Source: a virus
Virus record (IMG/VR): IMGVR_UViG_3300033075_001605
DNA: 51,741 nt
Strand: one strand, 5' to 3'
Shown here: positions 35,695-51,632 of the stretch, piece after piece
Layout of the letters: each line of letters starts with the position of its first letter
How positions within the stretch are numbered: position 1 is the first letter of the stretch
Notes under the pieces: model-generated
The model's database searches: none
What the model was told of the DNA's origin: nothing
The model's input: the letters and a program-made list of their open reading frames with translations, nothing else
Translations under genes and position numbers: made by a program

Positions 35695-36009
35695 TTAAAC
35701 GCGTTTATCGTCAAGCGATCTAACAATGTCATTGATGATGTTATCAAGCTGCATTCGTGCCGTGCAAAGCTGGAGGACGTCAGCTGGCTTGACGCAGTGG
35801 CATAGCATCCGTTTTACGTGCAAAACAGATGGGCCAGTCACTGTAAACACAGGTTGGATCGTCAGCATGAGTCCCTTGACCTTTGTAACCTTCCACAGGA
35901 TGCCCTCTCCTGAACCGTTAGAATGGACAACTGTGACAACATCATCCACCTTGTACGGGTTTTTCTGACGGCCTTCAGTGGGCCCCGGCTTGTTATCTTG
36001 GTCGGTCAT
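35695..36009 (-). CDS. small KOW/SH3-like protein (family-related)
   Basis: KVDDVVTVVHSNGSGEGILWKVTKV. Confidence 0.45.
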   Translation of the reverse strand: MTDQDNKPGPTEGRQKNPYKVDDVVTVVHSNGSGEGILWKVTKVKGLMLTIQPVFTVTGPSVLHVKRMLCHCVKPADVLQLCTARMQLDNIINDIVRSLDDKRV

Positions 36010-36116
36010 GGGTTGTTGCTTTGGTCGTTTCGACAGATCGTGATCACCATGTATGCAAACAATGCAAAGATGAACGCGATTAGGATGAGGTTGCTAACTA
36101 GCTCTGTTGTGTCCAT
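36006..36116 (-). CDS. small single-TM peptide, 36 aa
   Basis: MDTTELVSNLILIAFIFALFAYMVITICRNDQSNNP. Its TGA overlaps the ATG of 35695..36009. It falls below the ORF-track cut-off and coordinates are +/-2 nt. Confidence 0.3.
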   Translation of the reverse strand: MDTTELVSNLILIAFIFALFAYMVITICRNDQSNNP

Positions 36117-36349
36117 CGGGTGTTAAGCAATCTAGGAGCTAGGTAATCTAGCTCTGTGACAGTTATTGTTTTTGGCGCGTACGTCCACAGCACCTTGACC
36201 TTTTGCGCTGGCTGAACGCCATGTTCGTTTGCGATGACAATGCCAAACGAAAAATAATCATGCCTGTGTCTCACGGCGCTGCCAGGGAACACAGCGCTTT
36301 CGCCGTCTGTTGCAACGACATCCTCAATGTTTAACGTTTCAAACAGCAT
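36098..36349 (-). CDS. small protein, xPGDLV family member
   Basis: FPGSAVRH...FGIVIA...KVLW. Confidence 0.45.
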   Translation of the reverse strand: MLFETLNIEDVVATDGESAVFPGSAVRHRHDYFSFGIVIANEHGVQPAQKVKVLWTYAPKTITVTELDYLAPRLLNTRWTQQS

Positions 36350-36378
36350 GTTTCACCTAACGTTTCTCTGAGACTAAG

Positions 36379-36654
36379 TCAGAAGAATAAAGTACTTGGT
36401 AAAGACATCGGTTGAACCTGAATAATATCGTTTTTGATCAAGCCTGGAAATACCCTATTGACGTTTGGCATGACGAACGTTCCTGGCTCGGAGGTCCATA
36501 TGACAAGCGCGACTTCCTCGCCGCCGTCACGCCAAACAGAAACAATGATTCCCAACGATGTAGGCCAATCAACATGGCTAACCAACACACCTGGAACGAT
36601 CTCATTAACGTTTATGTTGAAAACGTTTGCGAAATGCTGCTCAAGCCTGCTCAT
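36379..36654 (-). CDS. small protein, xPGDLV family member
   Basis: VPGVLVSHVDWPTSLGIIVSVWRDGGEEVALVIW. Confidence 0.5.
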   Translation of the reverse strand: MSRLEQHFANVFNINVNEIVPGVLVSHVDWPTSLGIIVSVWRDGGEEVALVIWTSEPGTFVMPNVNRVFPGLIKNDIIQVQPMSLPSTLFF

Positions 36655-36970
36655 GGACGTGTGCCTCTAGCTTTGCATACACAAGAAAATCATGTTCAAC
36701 CCAGACCAAGCTGTTGCCTAACAACGCGATGTGCCATCTTGGGTTTCTGAAGGGTGTGCATGCGCTGATGGCGAGCTGCTGCGCGTAGATCTGTGCACGA
36801 GGAACGTCGTTAGCGATAACAAGGAAGCTTTGCCCTTTTTTGATGAGCGTGATGGTAGGCAGCTCATTCATGTTCTCTGTGACGTTATCAAAAAAGTACG
36901 TTCCGTCAGAGACTGGAAAGCACCACGTCCAAACCTGCCCAGGGGCGACAAACAGCTCATTTGGACTCAA
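36641..36970 (-). CDS. small protein, xPGDLV family member
   Basis: APGQVWTW...FLVIAND... The 14-nt overlap is with the neighbouring gene. Confidence 0.45.
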   Translation of the reverse strand: MSPNELFVAPGQVWTWCFPVSDGTYFFDNVTENMNELPTITLIKKGQSFLVIANDVPRAQIYAQQLAISACTPFRNPRWHIALLGNSLVWVEHDFLVYAKLEAHVHEQA

Positions 36971-49317: not shown

Positions 49318-49965
49318 TCATCGGGCAACGCCCTCATCGCTGTCGATGCCGCGCGGCCTGGCCTCCCAGGCGGGAGACAAAACCGACGAGAGCCTGGAGC
49401 AGGAGACGTGCCAGAGGAGCTGCGGCTGCCAGGAACCGCTCGTCCAGAGGACAGAGGTCCAAGGAACGGACCAGCCGCTGTCCTCCGAGCAGGAGCCGAC
49501 GCTGAGCAACGTTGAGACGACGACGCCCACGGCGCCCTGGTTCCTCAAGGTGAACACGGAGACGCTCGGCGGCACATTGTACACTCCGGTTCCGACCTGC
49601 AGGACGGTCGAACACCCCTTGGCTTCCCTTGCGCTTCCGCCTGCATGGTCCACGACCCACGCGGTCTCAACCTCGACAGAGGGCCTCGTCCACCCGAACG
49701 CTGAGCCCCCGGGCAGCTTCCTCTGGGCCGGGTTCGGGTGGACGAGGCCCACCGCAGGGACGACAACGTCGCCAGGGAAGACAGGGTGCGTTCCGGAGCT
49801 GTCGACAGGTGGATACGTTCCTGTGGCCCGGACGCTGCGTCGAGGGATGTCCAGGGCGCGCGAGAGCGCACGGATCCCCTTGAGCGTCACCTGTGAGGAA
49901 ACGATGGCCGGAGGGAGGGGAGGGATGACGTGAGAGGTATTACCCATAGTTTCGGATGTTTTCAT
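49318..49965 (-). CDS. family-like protein with N-terminal extension (GC-rich)
   Basis: The internal ATG (MKTSETMGN...) is chosen. The Arg/Pro-rich 150 codons upstream in the ORF track look like a GC artifact. VFPGDVVVPAVG...AVGVVVSTL...SVLWTSGSWQPQLLW. Confidence 0.35.
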   Translation of the reverse strand: MKTSETMGNTSHVIPPLPPAIVSSQVTLKGIRALSRALDIPRRSVRATGTYPPVDSSGTHPVFPGDVVVPAVGLVHPNPAQRKLPGGSAFGWTRPSVEVETAWVVDHAGGSAREAKGCSTVLQVGTGVYNVPPSVSVFTLRNQGAVGVVVSTLLSVGSCSEDSGWSVPWTSVLWTSGSWQPQLLWHVSCSRLSSVLSPAWEARPRGIDSDEGVAR

Positions 49966-50028
49966 TGTTGATGTTCTCTGCTTCTGCTCCCGCGGCTGCT
50001 CCCTGCTGCGGGCCAGCCAGGGACCGAC

Positions 50029-50199
50029 GCGCCTGCCCTCTGGGTTTCGGAGTCCCAAGCGGCTGCCTCTGTCCCTGGCTGGCCCTGGCGTGTCGCTGTG
50101 CCTTGTCGCTGCCCTACCGGGCCTTCTTCGGTCCCTTCCGCTGCTTCCGCCGCGCGCCTGCCCTCTGGGTTTCGGTGTCCCGGGCCGCCTTTTGCGGCC
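50029..50199. repeat. 29-bp direct repeat pair (CGCGCCTGCCCTCTGGGTTTCGG[A/T]GTCCC) about 142 bp apart
   Basis: Copies lie at about 50029-50057 and about 50171-50199 with 1 mismatch. One copy is in the 3' coding end of the AT-hook gene and the other just downstream. Confidence 0.5.
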
Positions 50200-50830
50200 T
50201 GGCTGCCTTCCGGCGCTCCCTGGCTGCCCTCTTGGCGTTTCGCTCCGCAGCGCGCTGCCGCTTCTCGGCCGCCACGACCTCCTTGGGTCGGTTCTTGCTG
50301 CCCTTCGGCCGGCCGCGACCCCTCTTCTTGGGCTGCTCCTGTCCCTCCGCTGCCTGGGGTTGTCCGGCGCCCGGGGGCTGGGCGCCTGCGGCAGGGGCAG
50401 CGTCGGCGACACGCCTCGGCTGCGAGAACGGGTTGCCCTTCCTCGGGGCCAGGTACACCTTCGTCAGCGGGTCGTTGAAGCCGATGAAGCTCCAGCCGGT
50501 CTCGCCCTCCTCCTGCGCCCGGAAGAAGCCAGCATCGTCGTCGATGCTGTCGACCACGTAGCAGCGGGTGTGCAGCCAGGGGTTCCCCTTGAGGAAGAAG
50601 CTGCGGCGCTCGACCACGACCCGCTCGCCGGCGTCGAAGAGCGGAAGCACGGTGCCGTCCTGAAGGACGTCGACCCCGGGATGAAGGTGGCTGACGTCCG
50701 GCCGGCGGCTTAGCCGGGCCTGCTCGTTCTGCTCCGGGCTGAGCAGCGGGTCTCCGCTGGGCTCCTCGCCGTCCGTCACCAGGGCAACATCGGTGGGCTC
50801 TTCCGCCGCAGAAAGGGTCTCTTCCGCCAA
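50114..50830 (-). CDS. AT-hook / Lys-Arg-rich DNA-binding protein with N-terminal small-barrel-like domain
   Basis: The TTG start has AAGGAGG 7 nt upstream. The C-terminus KKRGRGRPKGSKNRPK carries a GRP AT-hook and is followed by a K/R/A-rich tail. A Pro/Ala/Gly/Gln low-complexity linker is also present. Confidence 0.5.
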   Translation of the reverse strand: MAEETLSAAEEPTDVALVTDGEEPSGDPLLSPEQNEQARLSRRPDVSHLHPGVDVLQDGTVLPLFDAGERVVVERRSFFLKGNPWLHTRCYVVDSIDDDAGFFRAQEEGETGWSFIGFNDPLTKVYLAPRKGNPFSQPRRVADAAPAAGAQPPGAGQPQAAEGQEQPKKRGRGRPKGSKNRPKEVVAAEKRQRAAERNAKRAARERRKAARPQKAARDTETQRAGARRKQRKGPKKAR

Positions 50831-51239
50831 GTGGGTCCTCCTTTTTCTGGGGCCTTCCTCAGGCCCAAGACCATTCTAACAGGGGATTCAGCCGGGTTGC
50901 ACTGCCTTCCTGCGCCGGGCGTTTTTTGCCGGAGGAACGCGGAAGAGGCTCGTCTGCCAGATCCAGCCGACGCTGCCGTCGCAGAACAATGCGAAGGCGA
51001 AGCTTTTGAGCAGGTCGAGCTCCTTGCCCGGCGCCCAGCGGGATGCCTCGTCGACGACAGCGACGATGATCCCAAACGTTCCCTTTTCCACGAAGGCGTC
51101 GCTGAACGAGGCGCTCGGCGCAGGGCCGGTCCGCAGCCATTGGGCCCTCGCCGTCGTGCACACGTCTCCAGGGTGGAGGCCGCTGCGAGGGGGCGGCGAC
51201 GCCGCCTTGCGCAGATCGTTGGTGTTCATGCGTTTTTGC

Positions 51240-51632
51240 TCACGAGTGGGTGCCCCCGCGATCGCGATCGCCTGCACGTCGCGATCGACGCGATTCGCGT
51301 GCAGGCGCGCGCCCGAATCGCGCGATCTCGTCAGCTGCGACGCTTCGCGTGACTTCGTCAATGAAGATCGTGTTGATGTGGCCGACCGTTCCGTTCGCCG
51401 TGAGGACGAGCACGCAGTAACGGATCCTATATGACCCCACGGCGCGACCCTCGTGGCCTGCCGCAAGGACGAGCACGGTTTCCTTTTTTTCATCAGCGAT
51501 CAACTCGGTGGGGTCTTCTTCATCGTCCCGCACGGGGTGAAAGGGCGTCTGGCGGGCGATGACCGCCAGGTCGCCAGGATAAAGCTGCTGCGGCTGCTTG
51601 ATGTCGAAATTGAACGTTTTGGACGTTTTCAT
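51240..51632 (-). CDS. small protein, xPGDLV family member (GC-rich variant)
   Basis: LYPGDLAVIARQTPFHPVRDDEEDP...VLVLAAG...YCVLVLTANGTVGH. It is preferred over the overlapping 50888..51493 frame, but the choice is uncertain. Confidence 0.4.
   Translation of the reverse strand: MKTSKTFNFDIKQPQQLYPGDLAVIARQTPFHPVRDDEEDPTELIADEKKETVLVLAAGHEGRAVGSYRIRYCVLVLTANGTVGHINTIFIDEVTRSVAADEIARFGRAPARESRRSRRAGDRDRGGTHS

Follow-up and report, generated by a model that had tools for sequence, protein, structure and literature searches.

Tandem arrays of small, highly diverged proteins with a predicted SH3-like barrel flank the MVP-like gene in a clade of huge phages

The minus strand of a 51,741-nucleotide stretch of viral DNA (IMG/VR record IMGVR_UViG_3300033075_001605; the whole stretch is referred to below as the window) carries, between positions 35695 and 51632, a near-gapless tile of genes for proteins of 66-209 aa that is interrupted only by an 894-aa gene at 38389-41073 resembling those for the major vault protein (MVP). 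Nearly all open reading frames (ORFs) of this tract have PG followed by [DST]x[VIL] near the true start, and the proteins combine this N-terminal PG[DST]x[VIL] strand with a GIVVS-type strand and Trp-rich C-terminal strands. An earlier note, made from the sequence alone, had described a minus-strand tile of small ORFs with a PGD-type motif and had put the family at about one fifth of the window; the ORF list and the motif counts bear out the former, and the measured span of approximately 10-11 kb agrees with the latter. The features of the tract and the outlying members are listed below, with profile probabilities from hhalign and component numbers from the clustering described further on.

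51240..51632, minus strand: candidate member with the motif LYPGDLAVIA (hhalign 26.5% to profile C1, weak)
50888..51229, minus strand: member HPGDVC...GIIVAV...GWIW, moderate (hhalign 73%, E 3e-5), with the start taken from the Joint Genome Institute (JGI) call on contig L003
50114..50830, minus strand: non-member of 238 aa with a very basic C-terminal tail containing GRGRPKGSKNRPK (hhalign 0.6%)
49318..49947, minus strand: long-form member (component 4; hhalign of the long profile against the 49318/48743 pair 98%)
48743..49321, minus strand: long-form member (component 4; phmmer pair with 49318)
48450..48746, minus strand: intermediate-form member (phmmer pair with 47745, E 1.5e-9; component 1)
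48238..48441, minus strand: small non-member ORF (hhalign 0.7%; no Pfam family)
48011..48235, minus strand: member, moderate (hhalign 72%, E 3.4e-5)
47745..48014, minus strand: intermediate-form member that bridges the long and short forms (hhalign 89.5%, E 2.3e-7; jackhmmer links)
47514..47723, minus strand: member, moderate (hhalign 46%, E 2e-4)
47257..47496, minus strand: member MLRPGDLV... (component 0)
41946..47252, minus strand: core block of 16 genes, namely nine long forms, six short forms and one non-member
Core long forms, minus strand: 46845-47252, 46478-46864, 46125-46481, 45748-46128, 45378-45746, 44557-44946, 44144-44554, 43719-44141, 41946-42332
Core short forms, minus strand: 43472-43711, 43241-43471, 43034-43234, 42807-43040, 42592-42810, 42329-42595
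Core non-member, minus strand: 44959-45324 (hhalign at most 1%)
41716..41943, minus strand: member MTRPGELVV...GIVVAS...GWVL (component 0; hhalign 48%)
41455..41658, minus strand: DUF4314 protein, a separate family (Pfam PF14192, E 3e-17, 62.7 bits)
38389..41073, minus strand: MVP-like gene, 894 aa, between the two arrays (Pfam MVP_shoulder, E 1.2e-29; huge-phage homologues)
38344..38371, minus strand: terminator-like hairpin with a 12-bp stem, 10 G-C pairs and a T-rich tail, 18 nt after the MVP stop codon
36098..38294, minus strand: downstream array of eight genes (components 0, 1 and 3; orthologues in related phages)
Downstream genes, minus strand: 38040-38294, 37790-38047, 37467-37757, 37247-37480 (weak, hhalign 17.6%), 36957-37250, 36641-36970, 36379-36654, 36098-36349
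36379..36654, minus strand: member whose C-terminal 37 residues are capsid-like (BLASTP E 2e-6 to T4-type gp23)
35695..36009, minus strand: conserved small protein, weakly linked (component 2 with orthologues; hhalign 27-39% to components 0 and 1)
30956..31249, minus strand: isolated member (jackhmmer; component 1)
30414..30572, plus strand: possible member KTGDLVVF...GIVLAF (hhalign 58%)
26338..26541, plus strand: isolated 36379-type member on the opposite strand (hhalign 98.9%, E 1.4e-17; jackhmmer E 4e-5)

Gene starts were set just before the PG motif, following the JGI gene calls on L003 (JGI sample 3300033074), a contig that contains the same region at 99.7% identity and extends 4.4 kb beyond the window end, with one further candidate member followed by a gene for a KaiC/RecA-like ATPase. 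Several long ORFs of the program-made list carry spurious N-terminal extensions (44144-44650, 46125-46643, 46845-47363, 47257-47742 and 49318-50412 are examples). With the starts so placed, nine pairs of array neighbours share 4-nt ATGA/GTGA overlaps, seven more overlap by 1, 7, 8, 14 (three cases) and 20 nt, and the other gaps are mostly 0-32 nt. Seven of the 4-nt overlaps named in the earlier note are exact (42329/42332, 42592/42595, 42807/42810, 46125/46128, 46478/46481, 48011/48014 and 48743/48746), whereas two, 47514/47517 and 48450/48453, arise only with ATGs slightly earlier than those in the JGI calls, as read from the translations. The array genes lie on the same strand with abutting or overlapping starts and stops, and terminator-like sites do not exceed the shuffle expectation; this is the layout of a translationally coupled operon, and the overlaps suggest that translation of neighbouring genes is coupled. 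The members are rich in Trp, as the earlier description of their C-terminal ends implied (mean 3.8%, maximum 7.8%, vs 1.1% in nine large genes of the window), span isoelectric points from 4.8 to 10.9 and differ in loop lengths; reading the member sequences directly, we found no N-terminal hydrophobic signal or membrane segment.

The array could be thought of as a compositional or frame effect, with ORFs that are either not genes or not related to each other, given that many members cannot be linked by simple pairwise comparison and that five candidates are placed by the motif alone or by weak profile scores. The sequence of L004 (SRR7164319), which contains the same region at 96.4% identity, argues against this: over the array genes that L004 covers, pN/pS is 0.35 (128.5 synonymous and 155.5 non-synonymous changes; binomial p = 4e-17 against neutrality), and the value for the MVP gene in the same comparison is 0.04. 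In a second lineage, the upstream arrays of L009 and L010 yield a pN/pS of 0.32. Gene callers predict the same array genes in independent assemblies, orthologues are present in other phages, AlphaFold models are confident, and the profile searches described below all but ignore reversed-sequence decoys. The motif is enriched on the coding strand only: across 35695-51741, the minus frames together contain 30 instances of PG[DSTEK]x[VILM] and the plus frames 10, and a further 16 are spread over the six frames of the rest of the window (35.7 kb). The array ORFs are real, co-oriented genes under moderate purifying selection, as the earlier note had argued from the overlaps alone; the artefact explanation is refuted for the bulk of the array and retains a negligible probability overall.

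Pairwise comparison with phmmer separates a long cluster of nine proteins, a short cluster of five and three pairs, so that the long and short forms distinguished in the earlier note are real; the close pair 44557/45378 that it singled out was also recovered (E = 8e-21, with SRFSTPEM in common). Identity inside the long and short subfamilies is 18-37%. We then assembled 549 proteins encoded on the same strand, from the window and from ten related loci, and started jackhmmer from each of the 518 small ones; a reversed-sequence decoy was picked up by one of the 518 queries, and single linkage produced components of 108, 24, 19, 12 and 11 proteins. Links between the component profiles were sought with hhalign in local mode using the larger alignments, the global-mode probabilities being uninformative. 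The L009-type profile C0 matches the window short form C1 at 93% (E 2.5e-7) and the 37467 type, C3, at 79%; the short and long forms (C1 and C4) match at 74%; and the long form matches the 47745 pair at 89.5% (E 2.3e-7) and the 49318/48743 pair at 98% (E 4e-13). Fixed family profiles scanned over all loci gave 223 matches, none of them to decoys.

By jackhmmer linkage and hhalign, 29 members are placed within 35695-51632 and two outside it, 30956 on the minus strand and 26338 on the plus strand. Another four have moderate hhalign support of 46-73% (48011, 50888, 47514 and, on the plus strand, 30414), and in five the support is weak, at 10-27%, or limited to the motif (37247, 51240, 33201, 32223 and, on the plus strand, 30617). 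The figure of about 40 members given in the earlier note is therefore a fair upper estimate. Its statement that almost every ORF of the tract belongs to the family holds for most of them, but not for 44959-45324, 48238-48441 and 50114-50830 (hhalign at most 1%) or for the DUF4314 gene 41455-41658. Among the isolated members that it named, 26338, 30956 and 41716 stand, 30414 is moderately supported, 33201, 30617 and 32223 are weak, and 35695 is weakly linked (27-39%). Taken together, the profile links assign about 35 stand-alone proteins of 66-209 aa to linked subfamilies of a single superfamily. Compared with DUF4314, the family profiles reach 19.6%, and with MVP 1.4%; a kinship of the family to the MVP repeats was accordingly rejected.

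Using paralogue alignments as input, AlphaFold modelled a long-form protein (45378-45746; pLDDT 78, pTM 0.75) and a short-form protein (42807-43040; pLDDT 87.6, pTM 0.76) as five-stranded SH3-like barrels with the features of the SH3b/Tudor/KOW superfold. In these models, PGDLV forms b1 and is followed by an aromatic-x-x-Pro hairpin, GIVVS forms b2, WxLVLW b3 and GW b4. The long form has an insertion of approximately 60 aa, partly helical, between strands 1 and 2, at the position of the RT loop, in which the FWxxxxWxxP part is conserved and the remainder is variable. The closest solved folds are bacterial SH3b, Tudor, KOW and MIB-repeat domains, which vindicates the guess of a small SH3-, KOW- or Tudor-like barrel in the earlier note; its failure to assign a named domain also stands, the Pfam and PHROGs scans having returned no usable match. 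Neither 10 window members nor 88 clade members match Pfam SH3_3 at E up to 1, and Pfam DUF4314 is matched by 41455-41658 and by no array member. Searches of PHROGs with ten members gave only E-values of 0.015-0.039, to a major-head-protein family (through the 36379 tail) and to one unknown family; profile searches of PDB sequences with three alignments gave chance-level matches only; and Foldseek against the BFVD viral structures found nothing at E below 0.08, just unnamed small phage proteins.

A barrel of this kind could belong to regulators that dock on RNA polymerase or the ribosome in the manner of the Tudor/KOW domains of PcrA/UvrD, CarD/Mfd and NusG/Spt5. We regard this as highly unlikely: among the 88 members, PcrA_UvrD_tudor, Tudor_1_RapA and MFD_D3 are each approached by a single member below the threshold (E 0.087, 0.23 and 0.26, respectively), the PDB sequence profile search found none of the PcrA/UvrD, CarD/Mfd or RapA-type proteins, and the best fold matches of the better model, that of the short form, are to SH3b rather than to KOW or Tudor. 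The wide spread of isoelectric points also argues against a uniform nucleic-acid or polymerase binder. Specific membership in the CarD/Mfd/UvrD Tudor group was considered and is not supported by the Pfam scan or the PDB search.

The window comes from a huge phage, to judge by its gene content and by the matches of its MVP gene, in keeping with the phage origin assumed in the earlier note. Its large genes include those for isocitrate lyase, chaperonin, MetAP, IF-1, tRNA-His guanylyltransferase, RNA ligase and an exonuclease, and the MVP gene has matches in just three genomes of the GenBank phage collection, all from huge phages and 462-735 kb in size. We searched protein collections with the family profiles, twice over 5.8 billion sequences and once over 1.84 billion representatives. 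With the long-form and F0 profiles, all matches came from this phage and its clade. Outside the clade, the short-form profile matched two SH3_3 repeat proteins, two spurious repeats and nothing else; the matches to the SH3_3 repeat proteins, which are secreted and bacterial, are weak (E 5e-6 and 2e-4). The spurious repeats, both from the search of 1.84 billion representatives, are P0006, a eukaryote-like repeat of 1472 aa, and P0017, which resembles a polysaccharide-export protein and has repeats of PGDIITIK.

The family alignments contain no sufficiently conserved stretch, and the MVP protein served as the handle for related loci. Through it, IMG/VR yielded ten loci with MVPs 66-72% identical to that of the window, on contigs of up to 369 kb, and four more loci were traced through homologues of three other proteins. 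In all 14, the family is present on the MVP strand, with 3-26 profile matches within approximately 10 kb of MVP; the earlier note had proposed to look for the same array in related genomes. L009 and L010 have 24-26 copies, of other subfamilies; upstream of MVP, they encode approximately 40 proteins of 70-100 aa, almost all of which start xGDL[VIL]. Where the flank is covered, the gene order is array, DUF4314, MVP, array, MetAP; the DUF4314 gene lies directly upstream of MVP in L003, L004 and L015 and has orthologues in L008 and L012. The array is absent from the MVP loci of the two more distant huge phages sampled, LR756500 and LR756501, which have low-GC genomes and MVPs of 39-43% identity. 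In all searches made, the family occurs in a single clade of huge phages, with copies near the MVP gene at every locus. The LR756500 locus has three tandem paralogues of its own, of approximately 94 aa (MNKKIIIESEKEIKDILDYFNKFY..., L002:6209-7061), which are unrelated to the SH3 family.

This linkage is what would be expected if the barrel docked on the phage MVP shell and the array members were cargo, adaptors or accessory subunits of a vault-like particle, as the earlier note suggested as its alternative. The presence of the family within reach of MVP in all 14 loci, which come from independent samples, and the conserved order would fit; the barrel is what very different paralogues conserve, as for a shared dock with variable payloads, and the capsid-fragment tails described below would fit as well. 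Nevertheless, all loci with the array belong to one syntenic clade, so that the linkage may be inherited gene order, the huge phages with distant MVPs lack the array, the members share no flexible targeting peptide, and the profile comparison with MVP came to nothing. Moreover, MVP is probably transcribed separately from the arrays because the 381-nt gap upstream of it holds a promoter-like site (41128-41156) and the strong hairpin follows it; these signals also suggest strong expression of the MVP transcript. The downstream array, too, has a promoter-like site in front of it. There are 13 such sites, vs 6.3 +/- 2.6 in shuffled sequences, whereas terminator-like sites are at the level of chance (20 vs 18.1 expected from shuffles). 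On balance, a vault-linked role appears rather unlikely.

One subfamily points in another direction. The 36379-type proteins (consensus PGxxVxH...GxxIA...VLWSxxP) have C-terminal tails that are pieces of a major capsid protein of the T4 Gp23 type. Six orthologues match positions 2-49 of the 376 in Pfam Gp23 above the cutoff, with E-values down to 2.6e-13; the window protein 36379-36654 scores 16.1 bits, below the cutoff of 24.4 bits. Genuine capsid proteins of 630-660 aa with the Gp23 2-49 stretch are common in IMG/VR, and by alignment to one of these, the 639-aa capsid protein of L047, the array proteins match the N-arm (77-148), the middle (356-428) or the C-terminus (576-637), with E-values down to 5e-24. 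To judge from these alignments, the 36379-type orthologues carry a fragment of a capsid protein and are not capsid proteins themselves. A related locus has at most three such members, and when more than one kind is present, the order is middle piece, C-terminal piece, N-arm. The carriers are:

L005: 14552-15169
L008: 13739-14239, 14865-15275 and 15471-16094
L007: 18842-19435
L013: 19518-20530
L016 and L018: also carriers

In the window copy, which ends straight after the N-arm piece, residues 55-91 align to residues 89-125 of a Tequatrovirus gp23 (43% identity, BLASTP E 2e-6). The Gol region corresponds to gp23 residues 93-122, which this match covers. According to a review, Gol comprises 29 residues within the first quarter of gp23 and is better conserved than any other part of that protein; by binding EF-Tu, it enables the prophage e14 protease Lit to abort infection (PMC3014915).

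These tails raise the possibility that the array proteins assist capsid assembly, decorate the capsid or are packaged inside it. Giant phages such as phiKZ and T4 are known to have paralogous internal head proteins, and the presence of up to three members with Gp23-type fragments in a conserved order, together with the gp23 match of the window copy, would be compatible with such a role. The tails are, however, limited to one to three genes per locus and are absent from the upstream long and short forms; the window copy is truncated, and approximately 223 nt of this gene are missing from the sister strain L004. The scanned genes of the window have no match to structural families, the neighbours being MetAP, IF-1, chaperonin, AAA ATPase and RNA-repair genes. 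A capsid-linked function for the array as a whole is, in our estimate, quite unlikely.

The composition of the arrays changes over short evolutionary distances. Within the sampled parts of the related loci, approximately 10 kb on either side of MVP, nothing related to the long and short forms is present, and two of the three collection searches recovered them only from this phage and close strains. The downstream members 36379, 36641, 37467, 38040 and 35695, in contrast, have orthologues in the related loci. Compared to L004, where the short form at 3296-3522 is intact, 43241-43471 is frameshifted in the window, which explains its odd C-terminus; this copy is either a pseudogene or an assembly error. 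Apart from this gene and from 36379, which is partly deleted in L004, the members are intact between the two strains, at 87-100% amino-acid identity, with 46478 only partly covered. Between L009 and L010, which are 90-97% identical over shared blocks, a 1.6-kb block of the upstream array has moved and other segments do not align. We found no recent duplicates, the longest DNA repeat being 71 nt at 70% identity, which, along with the pN/pS of the array, agrees with the characterization of the paralogues as old and diverged in the earlier note. The genes are adjacent, co-oriented and lineage-restricted and differ in copy between lineages, the pattern of a lineage-specific tandem expansion. The superfamily arose and diversified in one clade by tandem duplication, divergence, loss and rearrangement, that is, by birth and death.

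The reading of these observations that we tentatively favour, with slightly less than an even chance of being correct, is that the arrays are a birth-and-death repertoire of intracellular binders or adaptors built on an SH3 scaffold. In its favour are the combination of a scaffold with variable parts, the range of charge among the members, subfamilies that are specific to lineages and the Gol-like fusion. The two compact arrays that flank the MVP-like gene, of at least 10 kb upstream and 2.2 kb downstream, would be polycistronic; the barrel would be the constant scaffold, and the working parts that vary would be the insertions at the RT loop, residues on the surface and, for one subfamily, the C-terminal tails. 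Because the members have no signal peptide or membrane segment, their expected place of action is the interior of the infected cell, where, as adaptors or binders, they would engage macromolecules of the host or the phage, with roles in host takeover, counter-defence or assembly control; an anti-defence or binding role is what the earlier note had proposed, and we infer the same. In the 36379-type members, the barrel may present capsid fragments, among them the stretch of gp23 that, in the case of T4, is bound by EF-Tu and recognized by Lit.

Several observations sit uneasily with a repertoire of binders. A generic repertoire of this kind leaves the strict, clade-wide linkage to MVP unexplained. 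At the strain level, the genes are under purifying, not positive, selection, and the loops and inserts do not evolve significantly faster than the barrel core (pN/pS 0.45 vs 0.37, p = 0.27). The long-form insertion with its FWxxxxWxxP part is predicted to be a subdomain rather than a free hypervariable loop. Finally, the AlphaFold models cover two members, and the 36379-, 37467- and L009-type proteins receive the fold through profile links alone.

An extension that would join the vault and binder ideas is that the barrel docks some 35 paralogues as adaptors that, during infection, load different payloads, such as the capsid fragments or host factors like EF-Tu, into or onto a vault-like MVP compartment. 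We consider this decidedly improbable; if true, an MVP-docking adaptor library would make the compartment a viral organelle of a new type, in which cargo is loaded combinatorially.

Some further observations concern the array DNA. Among otherwise very different paralogues, the PGDL motif is kept at the DNA level as CCAGGCGACCTGAT on the coding strand (42301-42325, 47662-47686, 51565-51589, 37428-37450 and 46444-46466), which could reflect codon preference or gene conversion. The G+C content is 63% at 48000-50500 vs 47-55% across most of the array. Perfect or near-perfect inverted repeats at 49681-49750 and 50010-50085 and a 36-nt direct repeat at 50028 and 50153 lie in or beside the 166-nt gap between 49947 and 50114. 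The window ends, at 51741, inside the array, and contigs L006, L007, L009 and L012 also break within approximately 1-12 kb of MVP, which hints that the array region fragments assemblies, perhaps through strain variation or paralogy. The non-member 50114-50830 has orthologues upstream of MVP in five related loci; its GRGRPKGSKNRPK tail presumably resembles an AT-hook.

Elsewhere in the window, an IF-1 homologue (31645-31962, plus strand; Pfam eIF-1a, E 2.4e-20) lies near the genes for MetAP (34946-35680), chaperonin (28399-30036) and an AAA ATPase (26638-28029), and the same set is found in L016. A gene of the isocitrate lyase family is located at 7563-8828 (plus strand, E 6.6e-101), and genes for tRNA-His guanylyltransferase and RNA ligase at 10019-10861 and 14834-15847, respectively; no tRNAs or Rfam RNAs were found in the window. 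The idea that MetAP trims the N-termini of the array proteins was dropped, the second residues being mostly Leu, Ile, Lys and Thr and not consistently small.

The clade thus devotes a substantial share of the surroundings of its MVP gene to an undescribed family with a predicted SH3 fold, the subfamilies of which shift between lineages and yet remain under purifying selection. If the members are binders, they would constitute a natural collection of small, stable scaffolds; if instead they are linked to MVP, they would offer a first handle on the function of viral vault proteins. The capsid-fragment fusions, among them the Gol stretch by which the host of T4 sets off abortive infection, suggest a decoy or EF-Tu-binding function. 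We found no account in the literature of SH3 arrays beside phage MVP genes, and a 2023 preprint on viral MVPs mentions neither SH3 domains nor arrays.

Among known barrels, the most similar are the bacterial SH3b/SH3_3 domains, such as those of lysostaphin, the cell-wall-binding domains of endolysins and the GW modules of InlB. The array proteins, however, fall below every Pfam SH3 threshold, stand alone, without a catalytic partner or signal peptide, in tens of tandem copies, and in the long form have the large insertion at the RT-loop position. To the Tudor/KOW barrels of PcrA/UvrD, the CarD/Mfd RID and NusG/Spt5, they show only isolated sub-threshold matches to hidden Markov models and no PDB sequence match. 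The DUF4314 protein is likewise a small protein beside the array, conserved just upstream of MVP, and may also be an SH3-like barrel, given weak secondary Pfam hits to SH3-C_UBE2O and Cul7; nevertheless, array members fail its model, and the profile comparison gave only the low probability noted above. The Gol peptide of T4 sits in the capsid protein gp23 itself; the tail of 36379 aligns to the same stretch of gp23, and those of its orthologues to the N-terminal part of the Pfam model, but here the peptide is fused to a profile-assigned SH3 barrel.

As a mode of genome evolution, the array has closer counterparts. Tandem, variable-copy arrays of paralogues directed against host defences are formed by the MGF110/360/505 families of African swine fever virus and by the host-range families of poxviruses. 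The array resembles these in its tandem layout and in gain and loss between strains, and may work likewise; there is no homology, and the hosts here are bacterial. In phages, large tandem expansions of one small domain are rare and are usually read as the footprint of an arms race or of a modular machine. In phage G, a zinc ribbon is present in approximately 35 copies, which the authors of that work considered unprecedented (PMC7824862). There, too, tens of tandem paralogues of one small domain occupy a very large phage genome and are restricted to a lineage, but the domain is different and the copies are highly similar, whereas those described here are highly diverged, and the superfamily extends across a clade, with subfamilies that differ by lineage, and is tied to the MVP locus. 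Tandem expansion itself is therefore precedented; what is new here is the family, the high divergence of its copies, the clade-wide distribution and the fixed genomic partner.

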